A stretch of 64,000 bases of DNA from a bacterium (GTDB lineage Bacteria; JAAXHH01). The stretch lies in NCBI GenBank assembly GCA_963693015.1, contig OY843748.1:1024395-1088394 (forward strand). The letters are read 5' to 3'. The notes beneath the pieces are model-generated. The model worked only from the letters and a program-made list of their open reading frames with translations, did no database searches and was not told the origin of the DNA. The position numbers and the translations under genes are program-made. This document shows, one piece after another, positions 1-35,770 of the stretch (within the stretch, counting starts at the first letter, position 1; each line of letters opens with the position of its first letter).

Positions 1-551
1 CCCAGCACGTTCCGTTCGGCCTTCGTGCTGTTCTCGAAGGGGATCTGTCCGTGAAGGTGGGAACCGGGGATGACCGTCATGGGCCCGTTTTCCTCGTCCA
101 CGTCGTCGATGGCCAGCCAGATCGTCACGACCTTGCTCGGGGTCAGGGGCCAGTAGGACGCGTCCTGGTGCCAGCTCACCCGCTGCACATCGCCCGGCAT
201 CTTGCAGAAGTAGTGGGTCATCTCGCAGATCAGCGTCTCGCCGACCAGGTCTTCCGCGTAGTCCAGTATCCGCTTGTTCATGGCCAGGTTGTAGATACCC
301 TCGCAGTGCCGCTGCCAGCCGTTGATGGAGTAGCTGTTGTACCCTTCCTTTTCGGCGCGGGCCATCAGGTCTTCGAAATACAGGCGGTTCTCCTCGGCCT
401 CCCGCGGAGTAAAAACGTCCAGGGGGCAGAGATATCCGTTTGCGTTGAAAAAGTCGACCTGTTCGCGCGAAAGTGTCCTGGTATTGTCGGTTCTTGCCGG
501 GAAAAAACGCAGTTCCCGCTTCATTTCGGGCAGGGCGTCGGTGATGGGCAT
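1..551 (-). CDS. Phytanoyl-CoA dioxygenase (PhyH) family Fe(II)/2OG oxygenase; C-terminus runs off the window edge
   Basis: My reverse-complement translation from the ATG at 551 reads MPITDALPEMKRELRFF...VTIWLAIDDVDEENGPMTVIPGSHLHG, matching the PhyH motif seen in the other paralogs here (AWIALDDVDEENG...SGSHK). It is absent from the ORF track because no stop codon lies inside the window. The plus-strand ORF 51..587 is its antisense shadow. Confidence 0.7.
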   Translation of the reverse strand, partial: MPITDALPEMKRELRFFPARTDNTRTLSREQVDFFNANGYLCPLDVFTPREAEENRLYFEDLMARAEKEGYNSYSINGWQRHCEGIYNLAMNKRILDYAEDLVGETLICEMTHYFCKMPGDVQRVSWHQDASYWPLTPSKVVTIWLAIDDVDEENGPMTVIPGSHLHGQIPFENSTKAERNVL

Positions 552-679
552 ATTCAGTCCCCGTTTGGAAGTAAGTATATCGGATAGCAGATGGGTATAC
601 CGGTCAGAAGAATCTCCGCAGGCAATATACCGGCACAAATCGCTTGAGACAACCCCTGGATTCGGTTAAATAACCCTGT

Positions 680-1534
680 ATGGACGATACCACGAACAGG
701 GCACTCCTTTCGCTCGACCTCGCTCCGGGCGCGTCGCTTGACGACGTGAAGAAATCGTACCGGGAGCTGGCGCTGATCTGGCATCCGGACAAGGTGCCCG
801 ACCGGGTGAAAGATCGGGCCACGGCGAAGTTCACGGAGATCAACGAGGCCTACCAGTGGCTCGTCCGGCACCCGGATAGCCTGCGGACGGCATCGTCTTC
901 CAGGTCATCATCCCAACGGAAACCGCCGCCTGGTTATCGCACTAGCTCGCGGACTTCCCATACCCAGTCGCAGCGTACCCGGACGGAGCATGCCCGGAGC
1001 GGCACCACCGGTCGAAGGGGCTCCGGCGCTTCTGGTCGAAGGGGCTCCGGCGCTTCCAGCCGAACGGGCTCCGGCACCTCCGGTCGAACGGGATCCGGAT
1101 CGTCAGCCGACCCAGCCGTTCAGCGTATTCATCGCGCAGCCCGAGGAACCTGGACAGACGTCCGCTCGGGACTGTACATCTACCCCGATATCGACGCCGA
1201 CCGGGCGACGAACTTCATCGTATCGCTGCATAGCAATCCAGGCTTCAGTGGCGTGGCCGTAACCGTGAACGACCTGCTGGTATTCTACGATATCGATGGT
1301 TCGGGCGAAGAAGGCGTGGCCATCACCCGGTCGAACCATCTGGTCAACAACAACACCGGGACACTATTCGACATCGGCGACTTGGTGGAAGTCCGGCTGA
1401 AAGAAGGTTTCTTTGTCCCCTGGGGCGAGATCAAGGTACGCAGAAAGGGACGCCGGGGGTTTGAATCCGCGGGTTACGCGGAGAAGGCGCCCGGACGGGC
1501 GCTCGCGAGCATCCTTAAGAACCTGGTCGCCTGA
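680..1534 (+). CDS. J-domain (DnaJ-like) protein with an RG/RS-rich low-complexity linker and a C-terminal domain of unknown function
   Basis: The N-terminus DVKKSYRELALIWHPDKVPD...EINEAYQWL is a canonical J domain with the HPD motif. The middle region is (GRRGSGAS)n low complexity. Confidence 0.8.
   Translation: MDDTTNRALLSLDLAPGASLDDVKKSYRELALIWHPDKVPDRVKDRATAKFTEINEAYQWLVRHPDSLRTASSSRSSSQRKPPPGYRTSSRTSHTQSQRTRTEHARSGTTGRRGSGASGRRGSGASSRTGSGTSGRTGSGSSADPAVQRIHRAARGTWTDVRSGLYIYPDIDADRATNFIVSLHSNPGFSGVAVTVNDLLVFYDIDGSGEEGVAITRSNHLVNNNTGTLFDIGDLVEVRLKEGFFVPWGEIKVRRKGRRGFESAGYAEKAPGRALASILKNLVA
1010..1105 (+). repeat. Coding tandem repeat of a 24-nt unit, 4 copies (ggtcgaaggggctccggcgcttct and variants), encoding GRRGSGAS repeats
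   Basis: Direct reading of 1010-1105 shows four consecutive 24-nt units with a few substitutions, in frame inside the J-domain protein gene. Confidence 0.7.
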
Positions 1535-1573
1535 TCAAGCCAAGTTTGAAAGCAGTGGTTACAGTATACGACC

Positions 1574-2257
1574 TCACACCGGCCACTGCTCCTTCCGGTA
1601 CCCCATGTCCCAGAACATCCACTCGTACCGGCTGGCCGTGACGTAGTGGTTCAGCATGGCTTCTCGGTCCTCCTTAGGAAGCCCCACGGAGACGCGGTTC
1701 GTGATTTCGAGGACGGCCACTACGCATTCGGCAAACTGCTCGCCGGCATAGGTGTCGATCCACTGCTGGTACATGGGATCGGGCGATCCCCGCTCGGCCA
1801 GCGCCTTGCCCACCTCCCAGTAGATCCAGTAGCACGGCAGCACGACGGCCACGACTTCGTGGTAGGGACGGCCGTAGGCCACCGACAGCAGGTAGCTCGT
1901 GTACGCCTGGCACGCGGGCGCCTTGGGGGTCGCCCAGACCTGGTCCGCCGACAGGCCGAAGACGTCGAAGAAGTGCTCCTGCATGGCCCGCTCTTCCACG
2001 AGACAACCTTTGGCGTGCTCGTTGAAGAGGATGATGCTGTCTTCGTCCGGCGCCTTGGCGGCGGCGAGGCTCAGGGCCCGGGCGTAGTCCTTGAGATACA
2101 GCGCGTCCTGGACGGTGTAGAACTCGAAGGCCGAGCGGTCGAGGTCGCCGGAAGTGAGTCCCTTGATGAAGGGATGGGCGAGGATCGCGTCGTAGATCGT
2201 AGCCGTCTCCGACCACATGAGATCGGTGATGGCGCCTGTCGCCGATGCGTTCGTCAT
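1574..2257 (-). CDS. tenA: TenA/thiaminase II family aminopyrimidine aminohydrolase
   Basis: 227 aa. FYTVQDALYL...CYWIYWEVG and the overall length are typical of the TenA/THI-4 family. Confidence 0.8.
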   Translation of the reverse strand: MTNASATGAITDLMWSETATIYDAILAHPFIKGLTSGDLDRSAFEFYTVQDALYLKDYARALSLAAAKAPDEDSIILFNEHAKGCLVEERAMQEHFFDVFGLSADQVWATPKAPACQAYTSYLLSVAYGRPYHEVVAVVLPCYWIYWEVGKALAERGSPDPMYQQWIDTYAGEQFAECVVAVLEITNRVSVGLPKEDREAMLNHYVTASRYEWMFWDMGYRKEQWPV

Positions 2258-2522
2258 CTGAACACTCCCTGATTACTCGCCTCACGGCTGAACAGTCGCA
2301 ACCTGATGGATCATATTCTGTGATATGATCTTACGATCGGTCTAAAATACATGTTTAAAGTATGTAATCAAACTGAAAGCGGGTTCATTGCATTCCCGTG
2401 TGTCCGGCGGATAAACGCTTACCGGGTCGGGAGAAATCTTGAGGTGGCATCGAAAACATATTGAAAATCGCATAAAAATATTGCATATATAAAAACGCAA
2501 GATTCCTCATTCGCGGGAGGGT
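2258..2522 (+). promoter_or_regulatory. AT-rich intergenic region upstream of the XRE-ImmA gene; candidate promoter or operator with repeated ATATTG-containing elements
   Basis: GC is sharply lower than in flanking DNA. It contains catattgaaaatcgcataaaaatattgcatatataaaaa immediately upstream of the GGGAGGG ribosome-binding site and ATG. No promoter spacing could be verified. Confidence 0.3.
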
Positions 2523-3632
2523 ATGATGACGACAGGGCTTATCGGCAGGCGGATCAAGGCGTTGCGAGAGGAACGCGGGCTCTCGCAAGAGCGTGTAGCG
2601 GAGATCTTCGGCTTCAGGGACCGGCAGACGGTATCGGCTATCGAGACGGGCGCCAGACGCGTGACGGCGGAGGAACTGCTGCTCGCTGTCGAAAGACTGG
2701 ACGCTCCGCTCGAGTACTTTACCGACCCGTTCCTGCTGGCGGGCGAAGGACGCTTCTCCTGGCGCCAGACCGGCGTCGACGTTGAACGGCTCGAAGCCTG
2801 TGAACAACGCGCCGGACGCTGGATCGGCGCGTTCCGCACCCTGGCGCCACGGGTCGGATACGAAACCCCGCTGATGCGGCGGGCGCTCGGACTCACCCGC
2901 CGTGCGCGTTTCGAGGACGCCATGGCGGCCGGCGAGCGGTTTGTCACCGAATTCGATCTCGGCGAAGTCCCCGCCGTGCATCTCGCGGACGTCATGGAAC
3001 GCGAGCTCGGCATCCTGGTGCTCATGATGGACGCCGAGCGCGGCATCTCGGGCGCGGCCTGCCGCCTGCCCGAACTCGACGCGGTGCTGATCGCGCGACG
3101 TGAAGTCATCGGACGCCGTCACTTCGATCTCGCCCATGAACTGTTTCACATCCTGACCTGGGATGCGATGCCGCCCAGGCACTCCGAAGAAGTGATGGAG
3201 ACCGGAGGCAACCGCGCCGAGCAACTCACCAACAACTTCGCGGCGGCGGTTCTGATGCCGGCCGCCACCCTGGCGAGGTTTGGAAGCTGGTCGGACCTCG
3301 CCGAAGATAAGTTGATCCGGAGGCTGCACGCGGTGGCGAACAAGTTGCGCGTGACGGCCTCGGCGCTAAGATGGCGGCTGGTCGCGCTCGGCAAATTGAA
3401 ACCTGCGACTGCGCGTTCCCTGCCGGATGCGGCATTGCGCAACAACAGACCAGACATCGCTGAGAACATCCCGCCCGCCCTGTTCTCTAAACCCTTCATG
3501 GAGGTGCTCGGACTTGCGATCGGGAGAGGCTGCGTCTCGGTGCGAAATGTTGCCGGTTTGCTCGACCTGAGCATCGAGGATCTCGTAGATCTCTTCGCAG
3601 CACATGGCGTCCAGTGTGCAATCGACCTGTGA
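2523..3632 (+). CDS. XRE-family HTH regulator fused to an ImmA/IrrE (COG2856, DUF955) zinc metallopeptidase domain
   Basis: The N-terminus IKALREERGLSQERVAEIFGFRDRQTVSAIETG is an XRE HTH. A HEXXH motif sits in DLAHELFHILTWDA. The GGGAGGG ribosome-binding site precedes the start; the ATG at 2526 may be the true start. Confidence 0.8.
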   Translation: MMTTGLIGRRIKALREERGLSQERVAEIFGFRDRQTVSAIETGARRVTAEELLLAVERLDAPLEYFTDPFLLAGEGRFSWRQTGVDVERLEACEQRAGRWIGAFRTLAPRVGYETPLMRRALGLTRRARFEDAMAAGERFVTEFDLGEVPAVHLADVMERELGILVLMMDAERGISGAACRLPELDAVLIARREVIGRRHFDLAHELFHILTWDAMPPRHSEEVMETGGNRAEQLTNNFAAAVLMPAATLARFGSWSDLAEDKLIRRLHAVANKLRVTASALRWRLVALGKLKPATARSLPDAALRNNRPDIAENIPPALFSKPFMEVLGLAIGRGCVSVRNVAGLLDLSIEDLVDLFAAHGVQCAIDL

Positions 3633-3638
3633 GGCGTC

Positions 3639-4145
3639 ATGGCTCGGCATCAGGGTGTAGTGCTGGTCGATACGAACGTCATACTGGAAGCCCACCGGAC
3701 TGGCTCGTGGCGGGCGTTGGCCGGTGGCTACCTTGTGGAAACTGTCCAGGACTGCGTCGATGAAACGCAGACGGGATTCCAACTTCGCCAGACGGAGTTG
3801 CGTATCGACGCAGGCGAATTGCGAGATTCCCTTAATGCGGTCCGTCCGGTTGGAAACCGCGAACGCGCAGGATTGGCTGTTCGTATCACCGATATCATGC
3901 TGGACAGGGGAGAGGCGTCGCTTTGGGCGCATGCACTGAGCAGGACCGATGCATGGGTCTTATGCGGACCGGACAAGGCAAGTCTTCGTTGCGGCGTCCG
4001 GCTAGGGTTCCGGGAGCAGTTGGTGTCACTCGAGGAACTCCTCGATGATGCAGGATACCGGTCAAGAACCACCCTGCGTTCCGCGTACACGAGGCGTTGG
4101 CATAAGCGTGTGCTCGGCGAGATACTTCTCCTGGAGAGGGAATAA
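3639..4145 (+). CDS. PIN-like (DUF4411-like) putative toxin partner of the XRE-ImmA protein
   Basis: 168 aa. The N-terminal strand VVLVDTNVILEAH resembles a PIN/DUF4411 start, with conserved acidic residues later (TDIML, CGPDKAS). The gene begins 6 nt after the stop of the upstream gene. The domain call rests on pattern similarity only. Confidence 0.5.
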   Translation: MARHQGVVLVDTNVILEAHRTGSWRALAGGYLVETVQDCVDETQTGFQLRQTELRIDAGELRDSLNAVRPVGNRERAGLAVRITDIMLDRGEASLWAHALSRTDAWVLCGPDKASLRCGVRLGFREQLVSLEELLDDAGYRSRTTLRSAYTRRWHKRVLGEILLLERE

Positions 4146-4147
4146 AC

Positions 4148-4921
4148 TCATCCCACCCGGTCCACGGCGCGGACGTGCTCCGCGTAGTCGGCGCTCCGGA
4201 AGTAGGCGCTATCCAGATTGTCCGTCTCCGTGGTCACTTTGGCGGTGGCCCAGTGCGTCGCGTAGCCGCGCCGCCAGCGGTCCGACGTATTGCGGCGCGA
4301 GGAGTGGAGGGTTTCCGAGTGGTGCAGCACCACGCCGCCCTTGCGCACCGGCGCCGCGGTCTCGTTCTCCCAGTCGATCAGATCGTCCGGCGGCGCCAGG
4401 TTGTAGGGCTGACCAAGGACCTCCACGTGATCGATGATCCCCTTCTTGTGCGAACCGGAGATGTACCGCAGGCAGCCGTTCTCCTCGTCCACGTCGTCAA
4501 GGGCGATCCAGGCCGTGATCACGTGGCCGCCCGGCGTGCACCTGAAATAGAAGTTGTCCTGGTGGTAAGGTTTCTCGGAGCCGAACCGCGGCGGTTTCAT
4601 GAAGAGCTGATCGCTCTTGAGCAGGGGTTCTTCACCGGTAATCCGCCGGAGCATATCACGAAGCCGGCCGTCCAGGGCGAAATTGCGGAACATCGGGTGG
4701 CGAAGATAGGGGCTGTCGATCTTCCGGGGCGCGGTCTCACCGGCCTCAGATCGGTCCAGCAGATAGCCCGCCATGGAGTCTTCCACGTCGATGGCATCCG
4801 CCGTTTCCAGGGCAAGTCGGGCGACCTCGTCGGCTTCTTCCGGCGCGAACACCCCTTCGACCACGAGCCAACCGTTCCGGTGGAATGTACGGACCTGTTC
4901 TTCACTGATCATTTCGCTCAT
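4148..4921 (-). CDS. Phytanoyl-CoA dioxygenase (PhyH) family oxygenase
   Basis: 257 aa. EEQVRTFHRNGWLVVEGVF...AWIALDDVDEENGCLRYISGSHKKG carries the His-x-Asp...His facial triad context. A GGATGG ribosome-binding site is present. Confidence 0.85.
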   Translation of the reverse strand: MSEMISEEQVRTFHRNGWLVVEGVFAPEEADEVARLALETADAIDVEDSMAGYLLDRSEAGETAPRKIDSPYLRHPMFRNFALDGRLRDMLRRITGEEPLLKSDQLFMKPPRFGSEKPYHQDNFYFRCTPGGHVITAWIALDDVDEENGCLRYISGSHKKGIIDHVEVLGQPYNLAPPDDLIDWENETAAPVRKGGVVLHHSETLHSSRRNTSDRWRRGYATHWATAKVTTETDNLDSAYFRSADYAEHVRAVDRVG

Positions 4922-5031
4922 CCATCCTGGAATTGCTGGTTATCCCTGGTTCCGTCTTGGTCTTCGCTGATCATCCCAACGTCCGTCCTGGTCACCGCCG
5001 GTCACCCAACATCCGTCCCGTTCTTTGCCGG

Positions 5032-5805
5032 TCATCCCGCATTTTCATTCCGCAGGGTATCCAGGTGCTCCTTCAGCACCTGCATGCCGTACCCCATGGG
5101 CGTGCCGACGTTGATATATCGGTAGCCCCAGTCGATTTTTTCCTGGATCTCCTCCATGCCGGCCAGCGTCGTGCCGGCCATGATCCCCGTGCCCTTCAGG
5201 CGCTTCGGAACATCACGCATGATCGCCTGCACTTCCTTCGAGTCCGTCTGGGTAATCACGCCCAGGGTGGCGGACAGGTCCGTGGGACCGACGAAGAGCA
5301 CGTCGATGCCTTCGACCTGCATGATCTCGTCGAGGTTCTCGTAGGCTTCCAGGCTCTCGATCTGGAGCACGAGGACGGTCTCGTCATTGGCGGTCCTGAC
5401 CACGTGGTTGAAATCGAGGCCCGCCATCATGGCCCAGTAAGGCGAGATGCCCCGGTTTCCTTCCGGCGCGTACCGGGCGTACCGTACGGCGCGCTCCGCC
5501 TCTTCGGCGGTGTTGACCTGGGGAATCATGACGGCCACGGAACCGATATCGTAGGCCTTCTTGACGAGGGCGGGATCGTTCCAGGCGATGCGGATCATGG
5601 GCGCCACGTCGTTCCGGCGCGCGATCACCGGGACCATGTCCAGCCCCTCGATCCATATGGAGGAATGTTCCGCATCGATCCAGAGAAAATCGATGTCTGA
5701 ATTGCACACCTGGGATGCCATGAACGAGGTGGGGGCGGGCAGCACCGTGCCCAGCAGCAGTTCGCAGTCGCGTATGCGCTGTTTCAGCGGATTGGGATAT
5801 TTCAT
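5032..5805 (-). CDS. HpcH/HpaI family aldolase (2-keto-3-deoxy-sugar acid / 2,4-dihydroxyhept-2-enedioate aldolase-like)
   Basis: 257 aa with the overall pattern of class II HpcH/HpaI aldolases (IDAEHSS..., VMIPQVNTAEEAERAVRYARYAPEGNRG). Its start abuts the stop of the upstream aminotransferase, suggesting an operon. Confidence 0.8.
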   Translation of the reverse strand: MKYPNPLKQRIRDCELLLGTVLPAPTSFMASQVCNSDIDFLWIDAEHSSIWIEGLDMVPVIARRNDVAPMIRIAWNDPALVKKAYDIGSVAVMIPQVNTAEEAERAVRYARYAPEGNRGISPYWAMMAGLDFNHVVRTANDETVLVLQIESLEAYENLDEIMQVEGIDVLFVGPTDLSATLGVITQTDSKEVQAIMRDVPKRLKGTGIMAGTTLAGMEEIQEKIDWGYRYINVGTPMGYGMQVLKEHLDTLRNENAG

Positions 5806-6966
5806 CTACAGTGCGCTCCGTTCCCGCTTGAAGGCGGAGATGAAGGCCTCGTTCTCGCGGGGCAGGCCGACGGAAATGCGCATGAAGCCTTCCATGTCGA
5901 AGGCCTGCCGGACATAGACCTTCTTCTCCCAGAGGCGGTCGATCAGCGTATTCACGTTGGGGCCGACCTCGACCGTGACGAAGATCGTCTGCGTGCGTAT
6001 GGGGCTGTACCCCATGGCTTCCAGTTCTTCGTAGAGGTACGCCTTCCCCTGGCGGGTGATCTCCACGGTGCGGCGCACGTGCTCCTGGTCGCCCAGCGCC
6101 GCCAGCGCCGCCACGGTCGACAGCGTGTTCTTGTTGAGCAGGCCGATGCTGAACCGCTGCATGCGTTCAAGGAGCGCGGGATGGGCGACGCCGTAACCGA
6201 CGCGCATGCCGCCGAGTCCGTAGGCCTTCGAGAAGGTCCTGGATATCAGCAGGTTCTCGACTTCCTTCGTCAGGGGAATCATGGACGGATAACCGGGATC
6301 GTCGACAAACTGGATGTACGCTTCGTCGACGCAGACGATGACGTCCTTCGGCATCGCCCGGATCGTCCGTTCCAGCGCGGCGGCGTCGAGGATCTGGCCG
6401 GTGGGGTTATTGGGATTGCAGATGCTGACGATCCGCGTGTTCTCGTCCACGGCCGCCGCCATGGCATCGAGATCCATCTGCCAGTCCCCGGTCAGCGGCA
6501 CCTTCTTGACGGCCTGTCCGAGCTCCTCGGCGGTCCTCGGGATGGACCGGTAGGATGGAAAAGCGGTGACCGCGTTTCCCGGCCGGTCCCAGAAAGCGGC
6601 GAGCGTCGCCGTCAACAGGATTTCCGATGACCCGACGCCCGTGAAGACCGTTTCTGGATCGACGCCGTGATGGGCCCCGAGGGCTTCCTCCAACTCGAAA
6701 TGCATGGTATAGCGGTTCATGCCGAACATCTTGCTTGCCACGGCCTCGACGGCCCGGTGCGAAGCCCCCAGCGGGTTTTCGTTGATACTCAGCTGCACCA
6801 GCAGCGGATCGTCGAGTCCGACGCCGTTCACCGGCATCGTCCCGGACCCGTTGACCATCTGGGCCGCCGCTTCCCAGACCGGCGTGCCCATCAGCGTCAC
6901 GCCTGCGCCGCCCAGCACGGTGCTGCGCAGAAAACTGCGCCGGTTCATGTCTTGTGCTTCAGCCAT
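5806..6966 (-). CDS. Class I/II PLP aminotransferase (histidinol-phosphate aminotransferase-like) with a Tat signal peptide
   Basis: The preferred start MAEAQDMNRRSFLRSTVLGGAGVTLMG at 6966 has GGAGG 5 nt upstream and gives a twin-arginine signal. The body LSINENPLG...VDEAYIQF...SRTFSKAYGLGGMRVGY is typical of class I/II aminotransferases. The ORF track extends to 7086, but that N-terminus has no ribosome-binding site. Confidence 0.8.
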   Translation of the reverse strand: MAEAQDMNRRSFLRSTVLGGAGVTLMGTPVWEAAAQMVNGSGTMPVNGVGLDDPLLVQLSINENPLGASHRAVEAVASKMFGMNRYTMHFELEEALGAHHGVDPETVFTGVGSSEILLTATLAAFWDRPGNAVTAFPSYRSIPRTAEELGQAVKKVPLTGDWQMDLDAMAAAVDENTRIVSICNPNNPTGQILDAAALERTIRAMPKDVIVCVDEAYIQFVDDPGYPSMIPLTKEVENLLISRTFSKAYGLGGMRVGYGVAHPALLERMQRFSIGLLNKNTLSTVAALAALGDQEHVRRTVEITRQGKAYLYEELEAMGYSPIRTQTIFVTVEVGPNVNTLIDRLWEKKVYVRQAFDMEGFMRISVGLPRENEAFISAFKRERSAL

Positions 6967-7244
6967 GACTGCCTCCGTATTCGATGGCGATCGGAAAGGA
7001 TATAATCTGGAAAGAAATGTGCGTTCGAAGCAGCGGAAAGTCAAAGTTTCTTTTGGTCTTGAAAAGGACGCTCGATATGGGTACACTGAACGGGTCCCGC
7101 ACGAAAACGAGCCGCGGATTCCGGCTATACGCGGGAGTGGTTAAGCACTCGCTGCGTCCGCCGTTTCCGGTTACACGCGGCCGAGGTCGACGCCGCATTC
7201 GCCGCAACGCCGCGTATCTACCCCTGCAATCACCAGGAGCGACC

Positions 7245-9170: not shown

Positions 9171-9343
9171 GGGCTGTTCTCCGCGATGGGTCCAGTGGTC
9201 GCAGTACCGCTCCTGTTTTAGGCTTGTTTGGGACCGATGGAACGAATACAATCCAGAATATAATGCGCTGCTACCGCGGCGTGACAAAAAACACACCATA
9301 AAGTCGCAATAAAATCGTTTGTCCCGCAGGAAGGAGCATCCCG

Positions 9344-10674: not shown

Positions 10675-10707
10675 TTCAGTTTCTCCCGAGGGCTGGTTCG
10701 TTGGAGA

Positions 10708-12200: not shown

Positions 12201-13973
<1,773 letters not shown>

Positions 13974-26215: not shown

Positions 26216-26264
26216 GAAAGAATGATAGCTCAGTTTGGAATTCAGATTACGTTCGATTTAGGGA

Positions 26265-28865: not shown

Positions 28866-29124
28866 TTGTGTTCCTCAGAGGCGTATGAAATAGTTGCGAA
28901 GACCGTTAATCCATCCCGGATCAAGGCTGCTATCGGCCGGCGAAGATTGACTCTGCTTTAAGGTGTCTGAAGAACACGGACCGATCATGGATCAAAGATG
29001 AACTTAAGCGGCGTGGCACACCCTGTCAAGACCCGCGGCATTCGAGGCCGAGCCGTCCTGCAAAAGGACGGTTCGTTCCTGCTTGACACGATGCACGTAA
29101 CCCGTATACCATTGCAGAATGCCG

Positions 29125-29164: not shown

Positions 29165-29280
29165 CAACTCCGGTCATCAGTAATCAGTACTCTTTTCACA
29201 TTTCAACCGTTCAACCACATTGTCCGCGGCGACTGCGCGACAAAAGGACATCGCGCAAGCGGTAAAAGGGACCTGACGCA

Positions 29281-29643
29281 ATGCAATCGGAAATCAGGCA
29301 ATGGATCGCCGAGAGCCGCAAGAAACTGGAGGGGAAGGGACTGGACGACGGGGACCTGGACCGGTTGGAAACGCTCCTAGATGACGAGCCCCGGCCGAAG
29401 ATCATGTATCTGACCGCACGGTCGACCAATATGCGGTCCGGGATCGTCGGCTGGGTCGTGTTCGTCCCGGGCGAGAAGCCGCAGCTCAGGCTGCCGGGCG
29501 ACGAGCCGCCCTACGAATCGGTGCTGGAGGCCGTGGCCGACGGGTGGCGCGTGGTGCAGTACCCCATCCCCAAGCTCTACGAATACAAGGACCTTGAAAA
29601 CGATTACGTGGGTTTCGATTTCATACTCGAAAAGTGGAACTGA
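29281..29643 (+). CDS. Hypothetical small protein (120 aa)
   Basis: Host-like codon usage. Its stop TGA lies inside the GAGGAGG ribosome-binding site of the downstream PhyH gene, suggesting co-transcription. Confidence 0.5.
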   Translation: MQSEIRQWIAESRKKLEGKGLDDGDLDRLETLLDDEPRPKIMYLTARSTNMRSGIVGWVVFVPGEKPQLRLPGDEPPYESVLEAVADGWRVVQYPIPKLYEYKDLENDYVGFDFILEKWN

Positions 29644-29656
29644 GGAGGCGCTTAAG

Positions 29657-30460
29657 ATGGCTGAGATCAGACCGACGATGACCGATGACGACGTGATGGA
29701 TTTCGTGGCGAAGGGATACGCGGTGCTGGAAACCATGGTGGATCCCGATTTCAATGAGCGGTGCCGCAACCAGGAGCCAGGACGCGCGAAGGACCTGGTC
29801 GGTTCACCCGAATTCATCCGCGAGGTCCTGCTCCATCCCCGGCTGGCGGGCGTGATCCGTTCGCTGCTCGGCCCCAATTTCCTGATGCCGACGGGAGGCC
29901 ACCATCACCTGATAAGCGAGCCAGTGGCGGGACAGGACTGGCATTCGGACGGCATTTCCGGTCTCGGTTACGAGATCAACGAACTCCAGTGCTACTATTA
30001 TCCGCAGGACGTGAATATCGAAGACGGGCCGACCATGATCCTGCCTGGTTCCCATTGCCGGGCGGTCAACCGCGACGCCCTGGCCCACTACGGGGATCTC
30101 ATGGGCCAGCTTTCGCTTGTCGTAAAGGCCGGCACCGTGGCCATAACCCGGTACGGCATCTGGCACCGGGCCGGTCCGAAGCTCAATCACAAACCCCGCA
30201 GCATGATCAAGTTCTCCTACTTCCGCAACGAGGCGCCGCGGCGCGACTGGGTGATCGATTCGGAAGAAATCCCCGCGTACCGGGATCGTCCGGCCGCGCC
30301 TTACACGAGCGGGGTGGAATCCTACCGGGACCTGAGACGCCGCATCCACACGTGGAACTGGCTCTGCGGGCTCAGCGAGGAAGAATTCATGACCCACGAC
30401 CGGTGGCGACCGGCCTACGAGACCGGTACGCAGCCCGTCGAGGAAGTCGCCATTCAGTGA
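29657..30460 (+). CDS. Phytanoyl-CoA dioxygenase (PhyH) family oxygenase
   Basis: The start MAEIRPTMTDDDVMDFVAKGYAVLE at 29657 follows GAGGAGG at 9 nt spacing. HHLISEPVAGQDWHSDG is PhyH-like. The track start at 29594 overlaps the previous gene. Confidence 0.8.
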   Translation: MAEIRPTMTDDDVMDFVAKGYAVLETMVDPDFNERCRNQEPGRAKDLVGSPEFIREVLLHPRLAGVIRSLLGPNFLMPTGGHHHLISEPVAGQDWHSDGISGLGYEINELQCYYYPQDVNIEDGPTMILPGSHCRAVNRDALAHYGDLMGQLSLVVKAGTVAITRYGIWHRAGPKLNHKPRSMIKFSYFRNEAPRRDWVIDSEEIPAYRDRPAAPYTSGVESYRDLRRRIHTWNWLCGLSEEEFMTHDRWRPAYETGTQPVEEVAIQ

Positions 30461-30669: not shown

Positions 30670-31485
30670 ATGCGGATAACGCACACCAGGCGCGATGAAA
30701 TGCATCTCGGCGTCAGCCACGGCGGCGCCGCGGCGAGCTATTTCAACCCGGGGTTCGACGCGACGGCATTCAAGTCACCCTGGGGATTCATCCACTCGGT
30801 CATCTTCCCGCCCGGCAGCGGCATCGGCCAGCACAGCCACACCCACGCGGAAGAGATCTTCGTCACCATAGACAACGCCATGCAGTTCACCCACAACGGC
30901 CGCACGGCCGAAGTCGTGGGCGGCGCCGCGGTGCCCCTGCGCTCGGGGGAATCCCACGGCATCTACAACCACACGGACCAGGATACCTGGTTCTTCAATT
31001 TCCACTGCGTGGATACGGTCCGAGAACCGAAGCACGAGGACTTCGACGACCCGCGCATCGAGGTCGAGTTGGAGTCCACGGACCGGCTGCCCGTGGGACG
31101 GTTCGACCGCGCCCTGCTCAAGCCCCGACGGCACCACGGCGGACGGGGAGAGGTGCTCTTCCGGGAGGTGTGGGGAAGCCGGGATTTCCAGACGAATTTC
31201 GAATACCTCTGCCACGTCCTGCTGCCGCCGGGCACCTCCGTGGGCTATCACCGGCACGAGATCGTGGACGAGGCCTACATGATCATGAACGGCAGCGGAC
31301 GGATGACGGTGGACGAAGAGACAGCAGAGGTCGTCCGCGGGGACGCGATCCCGAATAACATGGGCGGCGCCCACGGCATCTTCAACCACACGGACGAAGA
31401 CCTCGAGCTCTTCGTCGTCGGCGTGAGCCTGGAGAAAGGCAGGGTGGACGCGACCGACCTGGGCGATGACCTGGCGGGACGCTGA
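30670..31485 (+). CDS. Bicupin (two cupin_2 domains) protein
   Basis: 271 aa with two His-containing cupin motifs (GQHSHTHAEEIFV...GESHGIYNH and GYHRHEIVDEAYM...GGAHGIFNH). Confidence 0.7.
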   Translation: MRITHTRRDEMHLGVSHGGAAASYFNPGFDATAFKSPWGFIHSVIFPPGSGIGQHSHTHAEEIFVTIDNAMQFTHNGRTAEVVGGAAVPLRSGESHGIYNHTDQDTWFFNFHCVDTVREPKHEDFDDPRIEVELESTDRLPVGRFDRALLKPRRHHGGRGEVLFREVWGSRDFQTNFEYLCHVLLPPGTSVGYHRHEIVDEAYMIMNGSGRMTVDEETAEVVRGDAIPNNMGGAHGIFNHTDEDLELFVVGVSLEKGRVDATDLGDDLAGR

Positions 31486-31520
31486 ACAACCAGGCATCCC
31501 ATGGAAACCGGAATCAACCT

Positions 31521-32324
31521 ATGACAGACGCAACCTTTCAAGCCCACGTGCTGGACCTGAAGGTCGAAGGATACACCATGCTGAAGGACCAGTTGACGGC
31601 GGAGGAATGCGCCGAAGCGCGTAAGGAACTGGCGGCCCGCTACCCCGACCGCGAGCGGGGCGGTTTCGAGTGGCTGTTCAACAAGGCGCGGGTCTTCGAG
31701 CGGTTCTACCAGCTTCCCGATCTCCTGCGGCTGGTCCGCCACTTTCTCGGACCCGACGCGCTCCTGAGCGCCGTGTACGGTTCGGTGGTCATGCCCGGCG
31801 AGGGCGGCGGAGGCCTGCATTCCGACAGCGGCATCACCGGGCACAACCGCGAGGCGTCCATGGCGGCGGCCGACGAGGGCCGGCGGATCACGAGCCATCC
31901 CATTGCCTTCAACGTGATCTTCTGCCTGAGTCCCTTTACCGGGACCAACGGCGCCACCGAGTTCGTCCCCGGCAGCCACCGGTTCGAGTATCTGAACGTG
32001 CCCGACTCGGCCTACGACAACGCCCGGACCGCCGTCGCCCCGGAAGGATCGCTCGTGCTCTTCGACGTCAACACCTGGCACGGCACGACGAAGAACCAGA
32101 CCGACGAGCCGCGCTACGCCGTGCTCAGTCCCTGGCGCCGCCGCTGGACCAAGTGCGAATACGAGATGGCCCGCGTGGTGAAGCCCGACGTGCTCGAACG
32201 GGCGGGCGAAGACGGGCCGGTCATCTTCGGTTTCCAGGCCCAGTCGCCCTACACCGAACTGTGGCAGTGGGACCGTGAAGAGGGCGGACCGAAGCCGGAG
32301 TTCAGCCACTTGCGGCGGGACTGA
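31521..32324 (+). CDS. Phytanoyl-CoA dioxygenase (PhyH) family oxygenase
   Basis: 267 aa. FQAHVLDLKVEGYTMLKDQL...GGGLHSDSG...TEFVPGSHRF. Confidence 0.8.
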   Translation: MTDATFQAHVLDLKVEGYTMLKDQLTAEECAEARKELAARYPDRERGGFEWLFNKARVFERFYQLPDLLRLVRHFLGPDALLSAVYGSVVMPGEGGGGLHSDSGITGHNREASMAAADEGRRITSHPIAFNVIFCLSPFTGTNGATEFVPGSHRFEYLNVPDSAYDNARTAVAPEGSLVLFDVNTWHGTTKNQTDEPRYAVLSPWRRRWTKCEYEMARVVKPDVLERAGEDGPVIFGFQAQSPYTELWQWDREEGGPKPEFSHLRRD

Positions 32325-32444: not shown

Positions 32445-33566
32445 GTGAAAATCACCGACGTAAAAGTGCACCTGGTCGAGTCCTGGCGAAAATCGACGGA
32501 CATCGGTTCGCCGTGGATCTTCGTGCAGGTCTATACCGACGAGGGCGTCGTGGGCCTGGGGGACGCCACGAACTGGCCGGGCGGCACGATCATCGCCCAG
32601 TCCGTGGAGGAACTGGGCAAGCTCATCATCGGAGAGGATCCCTTCCATATCGAGTACCTGTACCACCGCATGTACTACGCCCTGGAGCAGATCGGGCAGA
32701 CCGGCGCGGTCATCGCGGCCGTCAGCGGCATCGAGATCGCCCTATGGGACATCGTGGGCAAGGCCACCGGCCAGCCCATCTACAACCTCATCGGCGGACC
32801 GTGCCGCGACCGCATCCGGTTCTACAGCCACGCGTCCGATCCGGAGGAATGCGCACAGCTGGCTGAAAAGGGCGTCACCGCCATCAAGGCGTACTTCCCC
32901 GCCGACCCGCTGGTCAGGGGGGAGCGCATCGACTCGCCTCGCTCCGTCACGCTGCGGGAAGAGAAGTTGGCCCTGGAACACATGCGCCGGTGCCGCGAGG
33001 CCGTGGGCGACGAGGTGGACCTCTGCACCGACGTGGGATGCCGGTACACCACGAGCGCCGCGATCCGCATCGGCAACCGGCTGGAGGAAATCGGCCTGCT
33101 GTTCTACGAGGAACCGGTCCACCCGGAGAACATCGACGCCCTGGCCCGGGTGACCGCGTCCGTCAACGTGCCGGTGTGCGTGGGCGAGCGGCGGTACACG
33201 CGCTTCGGCTTCCGGGACCTGATCGCCGCCCAGGCGGTGGACATGATCATGCCCGACGTGGTGCGCACGGGCGGCATCATGGAGACCAAGAAGATCGCCG
33301 CCATGGCCGAAAGCTACTACATGCAGGTCTCGCCCCACAATCCGAACAGCGCCTTGTCGACGACAGCGAGTCTTCACGTCATGGCCAACATCCCGAACGC
33401 CCTGGTGCTCGAATTCGTGGACGAAAAATGGGACGCCCCCTGGCGTGACGACCTGCTGACCGATCCGCCGGTCGTGGAAAGCGGCTATTTCCGGCTCCCC
33501 GAGAAACCGGGACTGGGAACGGAACTGAACATGGACGTCGTGGATAAGTATCGGTTCACCGGTTAA
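32445..33566 (+). CDS. Mandelate racemase/muconate lactonizing enzyme (enolase superfamily; D-galactonate dehydratase-like)
   Basis: GTG start behind GGAGGA. MKITDVKVHLV...VQVYTDEGVVGLGDAT...IEIALWDIVGKATGQPIYNLIGG and the metal-ligand region (DVGCRY, EEP, VSPHN) fit the MR/MLE family. Confidence 0.85.
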   Translation: MKITDVKVHLVESWRKSTDIGSPWIFVQVYTDEGVVGLGDATNWPGGTIIAQSVEELGKLIIGEDPFHIEYLYHRMYYALEQIGQTGAVIAAVSGIEIALWDIVGKATGQPIYNLIGGPCRDRIRFYSHASDPEECAQLAEKGVTAIKAYFPADPLVRGERIDSPRSVTLREEKLALEHMRRCREAVGDEVDLCTDVGCRYTTSAAIRIGNRLEEIGLLFYEEPVHPENIDALARVTASVNVPVCVGERRYTRFGFRDLIAAQAVDMIMPDVVRTGGIMETKKIAAMAESYYMQVSPHNPNSALSTTASLHVMANIPNALVLEFVDEKWDAPWRDDLLTDPPVVESGYFRLPEKPGLGTELNMDVVDKYRFTG

Positions 33567-33604
33567 GGGGCAAAGGGGCAGAGGGGCAAAGGAGCAGGGC
33601 CAAT

Positions 33605-34849
33605 ATGCAATTGCATGACGACAGGCGGACCAACCGCGCGGACAACATACAGGGGGCCGAGATCCGACTTCCGACCTCGGACCTGACCGCGGACCTGGGT
33701 TTTTTCATGAAGACCCTGGGGTTCCGCATGGACAAGATCTACCCGGCGGACTACCCGACGGTCTCCGTGCTGTCGGGCCACGGGCTCACCATCCGCCTGG
33801 AGCAGGGCGCCTCCGAACCGCCCGGTACGCTCCGTATCCTCTGCCGCGATCCGGCGGCCCTGGCGGGTGGGGAGACCGAACTCACCGCGCCGAACGGCAC
33901 CCGGGTCGAGATCGCACAGGCCGATCCACCCCTGGAGATCCCGCCGACGCAGCACGCCTTCCTGGTGCGGCGCCTCAAGGACAACACGCCCTGGGTGATC
34001 GGCCGCGCCGGCATGCACTACCGCGACCTGGTGCCCGGCCGCCTCGGCGGGAGCATCATCGCCTCCCACATCCGCATTCCCGACGCCGGACCCGTACCCG
34101 ACGTCGTGCACTACCACACCGTGGGTTTCCAGTTGATCTTCGCGTATAGGGGCGAGGTGAAGCTCGTCTATGAAGACCAAGGGCCGCCCTTCATGCTGAA
34201 GGCGGGAGACTGCGTGATCCAGCCCCCGGAGATCCGGCACCGCGTGCTCGAATCGTCCGAGAACCTGCAGGTGATCGAGATCGGCGTGCCGGCGGACCAC
34301 GTGACCACCATCGACCACGAGGTGGAACTGCCGACCGGGGTGCTGAATCCCGATCGCGTCTTTGGCGGGCAGACGTTCTGCCGCCACCAGCTCAAGGACG
34401 CGGTATGGGAACCGTGGAGAATCGAAGGATTCGAAGCGAGGGAAACGGGCATCGGCGCGGCGACCGGCGGCGTGGCCTCGGTGCAGGTCGCCCGGGTGAC
34501 CGGTGGGTCGAACGGGGCCGCGAAGGGCAGTTCGAAGGAGGACGCAACTGGCGGCTCGATCGGCAGCGGGAACGGCGCGAACGGCGGGAACGGCGGTTCA
34601 GCCGGCGATGGCGGCGAACAGGTCACGAGCCACGCGGGCGACATCCTGTTCACCTTCGTCATGGAGGGAGCGTGTACGCTCAACGGGGAGAACCAGGGCG
34701 CGCACCGGCTGGAGGCGGGTGACGCCTACGTCATCCCGCCCCACACGAAGACCTCCCTGACAGACCGCTCGGACGACCTCGAACTCCTCGAGGTGGCGCT
34801 CCCCGCGCGGTTCAAGACCATCGTGCACGGGGATCTGAGCCTGGCCTGA
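33605..34849 (+). CDS. Cupin-domain protein with an N-terminal VOC/glyoxalase-like segment and an internal Gly/Asn/Ser-rich linker
   Basis: 414 aa. Cupin motifs HYHTVGFQLIF...GDCVIQPPEIRHRV and GDILFTFVMEG...GDAYVIPPHTK, with a GGSNGAAKGSS...GNGANGGNGGSAGDGG linker between them. Confidence 0.6.
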   Translation: MQLHDDRRTNRADNIQGAEIRLPTSDLTADLGFFMKTLGFRMDKIYPADYPTVSVLSGHGLTIRLEQGASEPPGTLRILCRDPAALAGGETELTAPNGTRVEIAQADPPLEIPPTQHAFLVRRLKDNTPWVIGRAGMHYRDLVPGRLGGSIIASHIRIPDAGPVPDVVHYHTVGFQLIFAYRGEVKLVYEDQGPPFMLKAGDCVIQPPEIRHRVLESSENLQVIEIGVPADHVTTIDHEVELPTGVLNPDRVFGGQTFCRHQLKDAVWEPWRIEGFEARETGIGAATGGVASVQVARVTGGSNGAAKGSSKEDATGGSIGSGNGANGGNGGSAGDGGEQVTSHAGDILFTFVMEGACTLNGENQGAHRLEAGDAYVIPPHTKTSLTDRSDDLELLEVALPARFKTIVHGDLSLA

Positions 34850-34915
34850 GGGGACGGAAGCCTGGCAACTTTTTCCCGCACCGGACGAATCAGCCGCTAC
34901 ACCCCTTCCGAATCG

Positions 34916-35770
34916 TCACACGCCCAACACTCCGCGCAATCGGTCGGACGCCCGGCTCAGCACCGTGGGCGGCACAGGGACGTGGTTGTACTCGGAGAAG
35001 CGCCTGTAGGCCCAGTAGGCGGCGTACTGGGATTGAAATACGTAGCGCATCCGGTTCGACGTGACGGGCGCGCCCCGGTGCCAGCACTGGTTGTTCTGCA
35101 GGTAGACGTCTCCCGCCTTGCAGAAGGCCGAGACCGGTCCCCTGCCTTCGAACTCGGGACTTTCCTGGCTGTTGGGATCTCTGCCGGAATACTGGCTGCC
35201 CGGCACGAACTGCGTAGGACCATCCTCGACCGAATCGATATCGGTAAGCGCCATCTGGATGGTGAACCACTGCACCGGCATGCGGACGCGGGGGTCGTGG
35301 CGGGGCACGTCGTCCGGCAGCGGGAACTCCACCCGGTCGTCCACGTGCCAGAGATCGATCGCCTGCCCCGGCGCGTTGCGGATCACGTTCTGGCCGCAGA
35401 ACTTGCAGTCCTCGCCCACGACCGCCTCGGCCAGGCTCAGGATCGGCTCCCGGATCAGCATGTCCACGAACACCGCGTCCAGTTCCAGCGTGTTGCGCAG
35501 CACGAATCCGTCCCCCCGCCCGCTCACGTAATCGGTGCCGGCCAGTACGGGATCGTTGAAACACCGGTCCGTCACCTCGCGGAGGGCATCGACTTCATCC
35601 CGGGTCAGCACCCCGGGGATGAGAGCGAATCCGTCCCGGTGGAAATCCGTGAGGATGGCCTCCATTTTGGCGTCGTCGAGACGCTCTCCTGGAAGTATGC
35701 GATTTGAGATCAATGTTAGCTCCTGTCGGCTGGCGCGTAAGCAGGTTACGTCAGGTAAAGGACACGTCAT
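34916..35770 (-). CDS. Phytanoyl-CoA dioxygenase (PhyH) family oxygenase
   Basis: 284 aa. LDDAKMEAILTDFHRDGFALIPGVL...WHVDD...QFVPGSQ. Confidence 0.8.
   Translation of the reverse strand: MTCPLPDVTCLRASRQELTLISNRILPGERLDDAKMEAILTDFHRDGFALIPGVLTRDEVDALREVTDRCFNDPVLAGTDYVSGRGDGFVLRNTLELDAVFVDMLIREPILSLAEAVVGEDCKFCGQNVIRNAPGQAIDLWHVDDRVEFPLPDDVPRHDPRVRMPVQWFTIQMALTDIDSVEDGPTQFVPGSQYSGRDPNSQESPEFEGRGPVSAFCKAGDVYLQNNQCWHRGAPVTSNRMRYVFQSQYAAYWAYRRFSEYNHVPVPPTVLSRASDRLRGVLGV

Follow-up and report, generated by a model that had tools for sequence, protein, structure and literature searches.

Nine divergent PhyH-family oxygenases clustered with sulfatases and predicted importers in a sponge-associated bacterial lineage

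A 64,000-nucleotide stretch of contig OY843748.1 (positions 1,024,395 to 1,088,394 in GenBank assembly GCA_963693015.1), referred to here as the window, encodes nine PhyH-family Fe(II)/2-oxoglutarate (2OG) oxygenases in its first 36 kb. The nine genes, numbered #1 to #9 from left to right, are interleaved with genes for two sulfatases, two polytopic membrane proteins of the DUF6785/DUF6784 type, and aminotransferase, aldolase, dehydratase, amidase and cupin-family proteins. We favor, with a probability of roughly 0.55, the reading that this is a cytoplasmic catabolic island for small polar, partly sulfated compounds imported from the host environment, in which each oxygenase would act on a different substrate. 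What we observed directly are the gene content, the catalytic motifs, the signs of purifying selection, the conserved gene order of the central part, the absence of signal peptides and, in a structural model, the transporter fold; from there we infer the catabolic direction, the small-molecule nature of the substrates and the chemistry of each step.

Results and discussion

Nine PhyH genes in 36 kb

Because the window is GC-rich (0.60 to 0.67, except for a dip at 26 to 28 kb and lower values at about 44 to 60 kb), genes were called by third-position GC. A Pfam scan of the approximately 50 gene products, about 40 of them from 1-43.5 kb, placed nine above the 22-bit gathering cut-off of PF05721 (PhyH), with scores of 24.4 to 134.5 bits, all located within positions 1-35,848. 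These are the nine loci that an earlier reading of the letters alone (the sequence-only reading) had called PhyH, so every one of its listed calls stands on a hidden Markov model search. That reading had expected at least ten paralogs, with PhyH-like neighbors extending the series. Searching all six frames of the window with a PhyH profile recovered the same nine genes and no further ones, leaving the remaining 28 kb free of PhyH, and the count is exactly nine. Beyond the left edge, the corresponding flank in a relative holds Ada/Ogt, sigma factor and SBP_bac_5 genes with no additional PhyH, and the series therefore stops there.

The density of these genes is far from that expected by chance. 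Nine of about 33 island genes encode PhyH proteins, for which our own calculation gives a binomial probability of about 1e-8 even at a background of 1.9%, the share of genes known from PhyH-rich Poribacteria. The island holds one PhyH gene per 4 kb, versus one per 49 kb in 61 DUF6785 loci of other lineages. The window as a whole has nine in about 50 genes, compared with 1 of 21 (L092) and 0 of 19 (L093) in sampled loci of related genomes.

Divergence, selection and synteny

The nine proteins share only 23 to 33% pairwise identity where BLASTP detects any, although profile-profile comparison of their ortholog groups (hhalign) links all of them as one superfamily. The only closer pairs are #1/#2 (99% probability) and #5/#6 (98.5%), which look like old duplicate pairs; #7 scores 92.6% to #9 and 92.7% to #1. 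Proteins #1, #3 and #4 are 60 to 77% identical to proteins from other phyla, far closer than to any neighbor in the window. Together with the different nearest solved relative of each paralog, these values argue for the co-location of old subfamilies: judged by sequence comparison, the cluster consists of anciently diverged subfamilies brought together and is not a burst of local duplication. The 'local expansion' of the sequence-only reading, in the sense of duplication on the spot, has accordingly to be given up. Measured against three relatives, dN/dS is 0.07 to 0.18 for #4 to #9, in the same range as for neighboring genes, and these six tested paralogs are under purifying selection.

Relatives were found by scanning species-representative genomes with the DUF6785 protein. 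The closest, at 94% amino acid identity for this protein, is a closed 3.97-Mb chromosome of a metagenome-assembled genome (MAG; OZ241838.1), followed by a dozen further genomes at 87 to 88%, labeled Gemmatimonadetes or Latescibacterota and derived from sponges and a coral. IRC1_bin_16 and SB0665_bin_8, both from Ircinia ramosa and about 3.8 Mb in size, are placed in Latescibacterota by the Genome Taxonomy Database (GTDB) (table in Robbins et al. 2021). With sponge and coral MAGs as the closest genomes, two of them GTDB Latescibacterota, the earlier suggestion of a sponge-associated uncultivated lineage is borne out. In public records (L004 to L011), the one clade carries the label 'Gemmatimonadetes/Gemmatimonadota' in some NCBI entries and 'Latescibacterota' in others.

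Gene order in window 13-38 kb is kept in at least 13 species-representative genomes, at 72 to 98% amino acid identity, and the only part of this segment that varies among relatives is an ATPase insert at 26.3-28.1 kb. To the left, the order Amidohydro_2, aminotransferase, HpcH, PhyH #2, TenA recurs in two fragments (L091 and L094). PANK22-1 scaffold_48 (L089), from an independent metagenome, has a 99% identical DUF6785 protein, and its gene calls concur with ours. Exact-sequence queries with three proteins of the window (GGT, PhyH #2 and TenA) gave no hit. Given this synteny in at least 13 species-level genomes, the divergence of the paralogs and their intact catalytic residues, the cluster is neither an assembly artifact nor a set of near-identical copies from a recent duplication burst.

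Catalytic sites and nearest characterized relatives

The canonical H-x-D...H triad is present in #2, #3 and #5 to #9 and is invariant across their orthologs. All eight full-length paralogs have, about 10 to 12 residues past the distal His, the Arg that binds the C5 carboxylate of 2OG. The orthologs of #3 and #5 to #9 retain this Arg without exception, and it occurs in 47 of 48 sequences in the #2 set and 35 of 36 in the #4 set. Conservation of the triad, which the sequence-only reading had proposed checking in each paralog, is thus the rule, including #1 by way of its orthologs, with a departure in #4, where H-x-G is combined with a relocated Asp.

PhyH #1 (3-551, minus strand; stop-to-stop open reading frame (ORF) 3-665; 72 bits to PF05721) is represented by its N-terminal 183 residues, the C terminus being cut by the window edge. 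Its HxD is present (WHQDAS), and full-length orthologs of 273 to 281 residues have the distal His and Arg. There are 4324 relatives in the database; the best 120 of these 4324 are 60 to 93% identical, and some of them are named as proteins of Latescibacteria, Gemmatimonadetes, Poribacteria and Chloroflexota. The nearest PDB entries are MysH and CytC3. 'Halogenase', the JGI name for #1 homologs, is an automatic annotation.

PhyH #2 (4148-4921, minus; ORF 4151-4939; 134.5 bits) is the last gene of its operon, after those for an aminotransferase and an HpcH aldolase. Its H120, D122 and H206 are invariant in 48 sequences, with R217 being the Arg retained in all but one, and its nearest PDB entry is PHYHD1 (E = 3e-24), matched over residues 72 to 231 only. 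PhyH #3 (8319-9170, minus; ORF 8322-9353; 52 bits), with HxD, distal His and Arg in place, shares 64% identity with an ORF from a MAG of Gemmatimonadota (L037) and is nearest to EctD in the PDB (E = 1e-5). PhyH #5 (25388-26215, minus; ORF 25391-26257) is divergent, at 24.4 bits, and precedes transporter 2 and sulfatase 2. Its H123, D125, H216 and R227 are invariant, and it is rare: among 1.84 billion, 130 representative clusters match at E <= 1e-3 and eight at 1e-30.

The triad and Arg are likewise invariant in the remaining paralogs with canonical sites. PhyH #6 (28116-28865, minus; ORF 28119-28874; 53 bits) is nearest to SnoK (E = 4e-6); PhyH #8 (31521-32324, plus; ORF 31470-32321; 65 bits) to DhiD, EasH and FtmOx1; and PhyH #9 (34916-35770, minus; ORF 34919-35848; 68 bits) to KanJ (E = 3e-6). 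In PhyH #7 (29657-30460, plus; ORF 29414-30457; 38 bits) the invariant residues are H96, D98, H170 and R181. PDB sequence searches with #5 and #7 returned no match. Sugars or the ribose of nucleosides are the targets of many of the nearest solved relatives of the set, namely PHYHD1, SnoK, EvdO2, HygX and KanJ.

Scores against the NCBIfam equivalog models for ectoine hydroxylase, chlorinating enzyme, methylphosphonate hydroxylase and pentalenolactone hydroxylase do not approach the cut-offs for any of the nine. The best score against the EctD model TIGR02408 is 29.9 bits (cut-off 336.5), against the Fe(II)/2OG halogenase model TIGR01762 (SyrB2/CytC3 type) 56 bits (cut-off 226), obtained by the HxD-bearing #1, and against the methylphosphonate hydroxylase model at most 39 bits (cut-off 500).

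A HygX-type metal site in PhyH #4

PhyH #4 (21127-21978, plus strand; ORF 20995-21975; 65 bits to PF05721) has a variant site: H123-S-G125, D212-G-I-S-H216 and R228, that is, LHSGG at the position of HxD in the other paralogs, and FVDGISHGS around the distal His. The motif H-x-G...D-x3-H is present in 119 of its 120 top homologs, and an E-x3-H form occurs in homologs of about 30% identity from genomes labeled Planctomycetota, Gemmatimonadota and Latescibacterota. The arrangement of H-X-G with E-X3-H is described as a peculiarity of HygX, the hygromycin B orthoester synthase (2026 review, PMC13374393), and HygX is also the best PDB sequence match of #4 (E = 1.5e-11). In an AlphaFold2 (AF2) model (predicted local distance difference test (pLDDT) 73.8, predicted template modeling score (pTM) 0.79), the top Foldseek match is again HygX (4xca, E = 9e-13), and 377 PDB entries match at E <= 1e-3, led by PhyH-type 2OG oxygenases. 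Of the nine paralogs #4 was the one modeled, and its model has the double-stranded beta-helix fold.

In both HygX (4XC9/4XCA/4XCB) and #4, a Gly replaces the carboxylate of the HxD motif and an acidic residue stands four positions before the distal His. The two proteins differ in that identity is about 20%, Lys137 of HygX aligns with an Asn in #4, and the neighbors of #4 are sulfatases and importers, with no aminoglycoside genes and no aminoglycoside cluster around it. These comparisons indicate that #4 is not a HygX ortholog. We reject the halogenase reading that an HxG motif might invite, because the Asp that precedes the distal His by four residues is invariant, and HygX has an acidic residue at the same place.

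The #4 orthogroup comprises 3069 relatives. The best 120 of these 3069 are 70 to 91% identical and come from at least five phyla, with Latescibacteria, Gemmatimonadota, Handelsmanbacteria, Zixibacteria and Anaerolineae represented, and among the 120 cluster representatives conservation reaches 95% or more at 42% of positions. In the three phyla examined, the genomic contexts of the orthologs are unconserved, consisting of varied and often housekeeping genes; in one marine Gemmatimonadota genome, the neighbors of the #4 ortholog include a sulfatase and two Hepar_II_III_C (heparinase-II/III-like) proteins. A conserved orthogroup in unconserved contexts suggests that #4 may be a stand-alone enzyme acting on a single conserved substrate.

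Partner genes and operon organization

The partner genes fall into several tight operons. Sulfatase 1 (19538-20908), membrane protein 1 (17438-19432) and a small ORF of about 130 codons (16988-17437; no Pfam match, 71 to 93% conserved in relatives) follow one another on the minus strand. On the same strand, PhyH #6, a variable insert, PhyH #5, membrane protein 2 (23399-25381) and sulfatase 2 (21963-23324) form a second operon, which is uninterrupted in the relatives that lack the insert. Both sulfatases are of the Cys type (CVPFR in sulfatase 1, PF00884 at 161 bits; CAPAR in sulfatase 2, 136.5 bits), with arylsulfatase and choline-sulfatase as best NCBIfam matches, below cut-offs. As read from their N termini, both begin straight with the catalytic domain. 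Signal peptides are absent from both sulfatases and from all PhyH proteins, and the sulfatases are therefore predicted to act in the cytoplasm.

The two membrane proteins (PF20581 at 361 bits and PF20580 at 66 bits for copy 1, with about 13 hydrophobic segments; PF20581 at 354 bits for copy 2) are 36% identical to each other and have about 12 to 14 hydrophobic or transmembrane segments. An AF2 model of copy 2, built from a 43-sequence alignment (pLDDT 85.4, pTM 0.85), matched barley Yellow Stripe 1 (7wsr/7wst) over its full length in Foldseek (E = 5e-9, probability 1.0, TM-score 0.65 to 0.73). This was the only significant PDB match, the remaining ones having E > 0.1. We therefore predict, from the modeled fold, that DUF6785/DUF6784 proteins are remote secondary importers of the oligopeptide transporter (OPT)/Yellow-Stripe fold. 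They resemble OPT/Yellow Stripe-like proteins in full-length fold and as polytopic membrane proteins of 600 to 700 residues, but identity is 11 to 12%, no match to the Pfam OPT model was observed, and Pfam classes them as domains of unknown function. The known OPT substrates (oligopeptides, glutathione and metal-chelates) need not apply to them. We found no literature on DUF6785. Several paralogs occur per genome, often two per locus, in MAGs of Latescibacterota, Poribacteria, Gemmatimonadota and Omnitrophota (loci L038 to L067).

A plus-strand operon begins with another small ORF (29266-29643; 120 residues in the L089 call, no Pfam match, 72 to 90% conserved) and continues through PhyH #7, bicupin A (30670-31485), PhyH #8, an enolase-superfamily (MR/MLE) enzyme (32445-33566) and bicupin B (33605-34849). 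Bicupin A has two Cupin_2 stretches (61 bits) and only generic cupins as PDB matches; bicupin B has two Cupin_2 stretches plus Cupin_6 and Cupin_3. The MR/MLE enzyme (PF13378 at 214 bits, PF02746 at 69 bits) resembles acid-sugar dehydratases, its best NCBIfam match being galactonate dehydratase (252 bits, cut-off 311).

On the minus strand, a class I/II pyridoxal phosphate (PLP) aminotransferase resembling HisC (5806-7086; PF00155 at 175.6 bits; TIGR01141 at 251.6 bits, cut-off 276.55) and an HpcH/HpaI-type class II aldolase (5032-5805; PF03328 at 107 bits) precede PhyH #2. The best NCBIfam matches of the aldolase are enzymes of keto-deoxy-sugar acids (HpaI, KD-rhamnonate aldolase and GarL), all below cut-offs. 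Farther right, a plus-strand operon contains a gamma-glutamyltransferase (GGT; 12201-13973), a PLP enzyme of the D-Cys desulfhydrase/1-aminocyclopropane-1-carboxylate (ACC) deaminase/cysteate sulfo-lyase family (PALP; 14034-15053) and an acetamidase/formamidase-family (FmdA-like) protein (15121-16821; PF03069 at 93 bits), whose start was taken from the 566-residue call in the near-identical contig L089. GGT (PF01019 at 519 bits), which has one hydrophobic, signal-like N-terminal segment at residues 8 to 26, is the sole partner enzyme of the island to reach an NCBIfam equivalog cut-off (TIGR00066, 534 bits against 358). The PALP enzyme (PF00291 at 108 bits) scores best against cysteate sulfo-lyase CuyA (251 bits, cut-off 450).

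Four further genes complete the metabolic inventory. An Amidohydro_2 enzyme (6984-8255, plus; PF04909 at 68 bits) and a first acetamidase/formamidase-family protein (9344-10276, plus; PF03069 at 66 bits, partial profile match) flank PhyH #3. A class V aminotransferase (10708-12165, minus; PF00266 at 84.7 bits), with BhcA, pyridoxamine-pyruvate transaminase and PhnW as best NCBIfam matches, all below cut-offs, is followed by a NIPSNAP protein (10348-10707, minus; PF07978 at 90 bits).

This inventory agrees with much of the sequence-only reading: Pfam likewise recognizes the HpcH aldolase, the two aminotransferases, GGT, the ACC-deaminase-like enzyme, the MR/MLE enzyme and, by PF03069, two FmdA/AmdA-family formamidases. 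Two of its counts need revision, as the supposed 4-5 cupin proteins are two bicupins, and of three supposed amidohydrolase-2 enzymes one lies within 1-35,770 and a second at 39.7-40.9 kb. It had passed over both sulfatases, both DUF6785/DUF6784 membrane proteins and the low-GC defense insert at 26.3-28.1 kb.

In the Pfam scan, 1-43 kb contained no glycoside hydrolase (GH), polysaccharide lyase (PL), carbohydrate esterase, SusC/D, TonB receptor, non-ribosomal peptide synthetase (NRPS), polyketide synthase (PKS), glycosyltransferase (GT), terpene cyclase, ribosomally synthesized and post-translationally modified peptide (RiPP) or sugar-nucleotide genes. Neither the Rfam scan nor the tRNA scan of the window gave a hit.

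A proposed catabolic route

The region reads as catabolic, as the sequence-only reading had also suggested, and it points to small imported compounds, not polymers. We propose that small polar compounds of the sponge mesohyl would be imported through the OPT-fold DUF6785/DUF6784 carriers; candidates are sulfated, O- or N-alkylated or aminated sugars, sugar acids and amino acid derivatives. In the cytoplasm, sulfate esters would be cleaved off by the two sulfatases, and each PhyH oxygenase would hydroxylate an otherwise inert C-H of its own substrate. This hydroxylation could cause a blocking group to leave (demethylation, deamination or desulfation) through an unstable hemiacetal or hemiaminal, or could provide a new hydroxyl for a downstream transaminase, aldolase or dehydratase. 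In the PhyH #2 operon, for example, the aminotransferase, HpcH aldolase and oxygenase could together yield a 4-hydroxy-2-oxo acid that is cleaved to pyruvate and an aldehyde.

Several substrate types had been suggested from the sequence alone. Sulfated compounds are plausible, with two sulfatases among the PhyH genes, whereas nothing supports branched-alkyl or quaternary-amine compounds. Nor does anything support a single family of recalcitrant, related substrates; paralogs as diverse as these speak for diverse substrates.

Alternative explanations

The two sulfatases, the acid-sugar-type dehydratase, the HpcH aldolase and a UxuA-like enzyme in the flank would also suit a polysaccharide-utilization locus (PUL) for sulfated host glycans of a glycosaminoglycan- or fucoidan-like kind, in which sulfatases would strip the polymer and the PhyH enzymes modify its sugar residues. 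One Amidohydro_2 enzyme is weakly fuconolactonase-like, the marine Gemmatimonadota #4 ortholog adjoins two Hepar_II_III_C proteins and a sulfatase, and relatives of the lineage are discussed in the literature as sponge-glycan degraders (PMC8163846). Such a locus is nonetheless unlikely here. Unlike in a PUL, neither SusC/SusD nor a TonB-dependent receptor accompanied by a GH or lyase is found among the approximately 40 proteins of 1-43.5 kb, and carbohydrate esterases are missing as well; the sulfatases and PhyH proteins have no signal peptides, and OPT-fold secondary carriers suit small solutes.

AtsK and TauD are Fe(II)/2OG enzymes that act on sulfated or sulfonated small molecules, beside hydrolytic sulfatases, although both belong to the TauD family (PF02668) and not to PhyH. 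The island could liberate S, N or P from organosulfonates, sulfate esters or phosphonates by TauD-, AtsK- or PhnY-like oxygenolytic cleavage rather than harvest carbon. Consistent with this are the CuyA-like PLP enzyme (251 bits), a SorA/SoxC-family molybdoenzyme 5 kb away, the sulfatases, nitrogen-liberating enzymes (GGT, amidases and aminotransferases), the weak matches to the methylphosphonate hydroxylase model and the link of some poribacterial PhyH genes to 2-aminoethylphosphonate use (PMC3909097). We consider scavenging improbable, since the CuyA, SorA/SoxC and methylphosphonate hydroxylase scores all fall far below curated cut-offs and the aldolase and dehydratase genes point to carbon flow. 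In contrast to AtsK and TauD, no window protein matched PF02668 in the Pfam scan, which also detected no sulfonate or phosphonate ABC transporter; in contrast to PhnY/PhnZ, the window has no HD-domain protein, and thus no PhnZ-type HD phosphohydrolase.

It is very unlikely that the island is a biosynthetic gene cluster in which PhyH enzymes tailor a sugar- or amino acid-derived natural product. Sponge symbionts are known as natural-product makers, and antibiotic or mycosporine pathways are the source of most of the nearest solved homologs (SnoK, EvdO2, HygX, KanJ, MysH, DhiD, EasH), but this bias mirrors which enzymes were crystallized, at identities of only 20 to 30%. The Pfam scan, moreover, shows none of the genes expected of such a cluster (NRPS, PKS, GT, terpene cyclase, RiPP or sugar-nucleotide genes), the sulfatases, GGT, amidases and aldolases are degradative, and #1 and #4 are single-copy orthologs found at 60 to 77% identity across many phyla in unrelated contexts. 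A mere pile-up of functionally unrelated genes in a permissive region or hot spot, where density would carry no pathway meaning, seems at least as far-fetched. Defense- or toxin-antitoxin-type inserts that vary among relatives do occur at 0.7-4.1 kb and 26.3-28.1 kb, a defense island follows at 43.5-60 kb, and the neighborhoods of the subfamilies differ between phyla. Only the inserts vary, however, while the order and orientation of the metabolic genes are kept in at least 13 species; PhyH genes share tight, co-directional operons with genes for importers, sulfatases, cupins and the dehydratase; and 9 PhyH in 33 genes is improbable (about 1e-8) at a 2% genomic background.

Several observations weigh against the catabolic island that we prefer. 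None of the nine paralogs reaches an NCBIfam equivalog cut-off and identity to characterized enzymes is only 20 to 30%, so that no substrate is assigned to any of them; the OPT-fold match, at 11 to 12% identity, carries no substrate information. The synteny comparison spans window 13-38 kb, with the left third resting on the fragments L091 and L094, and no regulator or riboswitch joins the operons. Beyond close relatives the subfamily neighborhoods are unconserved: #4 orthologs lie in unrelated contexts, HpcH adjoins #2 homologs (at least 48% identity) in only 3 of 31 loci, and in 61 distant DUF6785 loci a PhyH gene lies within 1.5 kb in 3 and a sulfatase in 1.

It follows that the modules are arranged at the level of the lineage and do not form universal operons. 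The counts at the distant loci rule out a general PhyH-DUF6785-sulfatase module, and outside close relatives the aminotransferase-HpcH-PhyH #2 operon is retained in just a few cases. Within these bounds, the trio of importer, sulfatase and PhyH recurs in two Poribacteria loci (L062 and L064) and in a second locus of the closest genome (L092), where it is accompanied by GFO/IDH/MocA oxidoreductases and a TIM barrel resembling xylose isomerase. In marine metagenomes, 4 of 13 #2 homologs of at most 41% identity are flanked by sulfatases (L157, L162, L163 and L166). Metagenome contigs of uncultivated marine bacteria (L135, L141 and L172) hold several PhyH ORFs in tight clusters; L141, for example, has four in 5 kb. 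Neither the clustering of PhyH genes nor their pairing with sulfatases is thus confined to sponge symbionts.

Variable inserts and flanking genes

The insert that splits PhyH #6 from PhyH #5 (26265-28062, minus strand) has a GC content of 0.49 and encodes an AAA_15/AAA_21 ATPase and a small ORF. The best PADLOC match of the ATPase is NsnB-like (130 bits). The insert is present in only five close relatives; it is therefore regarded as a variable defense-type insertion, outside the metabolic island. A second variable segment, between PhyH #1 and #2 (674-4145), encodes a DnaJ-domain protein, TenA (thiaminase II, above its NCBIfam cut-off), an HTH-XRE plus M78 (IrrE-like) protein and a 170-residue ORF, PIN-like in appearance, with the N terminus VLVDTNVILEAH. 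Between its own two PhyH genes, the relative L091 has a PemK toxin and UvrD-like genes besides TenA.

The right border of the island is marked by a 613-residue protein (35947-37788, plus), which has a SAM methyltransferase domain at its N terminus and an HNH_4 endonuclease motif at its C terminus, weakly matches mad2 in PADLOC and is conserved in some relatives. Beyond it on the minus strand lie a UxuA/xylose-isomerase-like TIM barrel (about 38735-39740) and the second Amidohydro_2 enzyme (39735-40853), both recognized by Pfam, and a molybdopterin oxidoreductase of the SorA/SoxC sulfite-dehydrogenase family (40894-42408; SorA 146 bits, cut-off 600). Judging by proximity, this flank (38735-42408) is possibly linked to the island.

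A defense island of GC 0.52 to 0.60 occupies 43474-60144. It encodes an HTH_37 protein, a Schlafen/AlbA_2 plus HATPase_c_4 protein, a PDC-S06 ATPase (637 bits), a HEPN-like protein, a type IIG restriction enzyme of 1489 residues (Mrr_cat-ResIII-N6_Mtase), a HepT toxin and a PDC-S35/CAP12-type TIR protein. Directly upstream of the PDC-S06 ATPase gene, and overlapping it, is a 1359-residue ORF (45872-49951, plus) with an N-terminal HTH_3 as its sole match and no PADLOC match.

Relation to known systems and implications

Over-representation of PhyH in sponge symbionts is known from Poribacteria. In poribacterial single-cell genomes no Pfam family was more abundant than PF05721, which accounted for more than 1.9% of genes, versus less than 0.049% in all other genomes then available, and the 305 poribacterial sequences formed 193 clusters at 60% identity, mostly without assignable function (Kamke et al. 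2014, PMC3909097). Transcripts of phyH are abundant in hospite (PMC5087111). Poribacteria and the lineage of the window are alike in being uncultivated sponge symbionts with many diverse PF05721 genes, which co-occur with sulfatases and DUF6785 (L062 and L064); they differ in that the poribacterial finding is a genome-wide frequency, whereas the window, from Latescibacterota, holds a local, syntenic nine-gene cluster in 36 kb. In the literature library that we searched, we found no report of PhyH enrichment in sponge Latescibacterota and nothing relevant that links PhyH, sulfatase and sponge, and PhyH goes unmentioned in the PAUC34f and reef-sponge MAG papers. The window extends the poribacterial pattern to a second phylum. 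What it adds is the different phylum, a compact cluster that is syntenic where compared, the partner genes, a fold assignment for the transporters and a HygX-type site in a widespread orthogroup.

For PhyH #2, a chemical precedent exists in the PHYHD1/FJS enzymes, including an active poribacterial one, which O-demethylate 2'-O-methyl nucleosides (Stonkus et al. 2025, PMC12709175). PHYHD1 is its best solved relative, and O-demethylation at a sugar hydroxyl by way of hydroxylation is the kind of reaction proposed here. Identity to five tested enzymes is only 23 to 29%, with 24 to 28% for the bacterial, viral and plant ones, and the aminotransferase and HpcH aldolase genes that share the operon of #2 do not hint at nucleoside salvage. 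We regard the 2'-O-demethylation precedent as a lead, not as an assignment.

A bolder reading, which we put forward tentatively and think rather unlikely, is that sponge-associated Latescibacterota and, convergently, Poribacteria might use a new catabolic strategy in which OPT-fold importers bring in small host metabolites, sulfated or methylated, and cytoplasmic sulfatases together with a battery of PhyH enzymes oxidatively strip their blocking groups, much as P450-dependent O-demethylation opens up methylated algal sugars. In the same reading, the #4 orthogroup, conserved across phyla at about 70% identity, would have a primary-metabolic substrate for a HygX-type site so far described in only one antibiotic pathway enzyme.

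Two of the results may be of use beyond this case: the fold-based assignment of DUF6785/DUF6784 proteins as OPT-like transporters, and the wide distribution of the HygX-type variant iron site among environmental bacteria. The island itself offers a short, defined set of enzymes and operons that is open to experiment. If its substrates were found, they would reveal host-derived molecules that feed dominant sponge symbionts.

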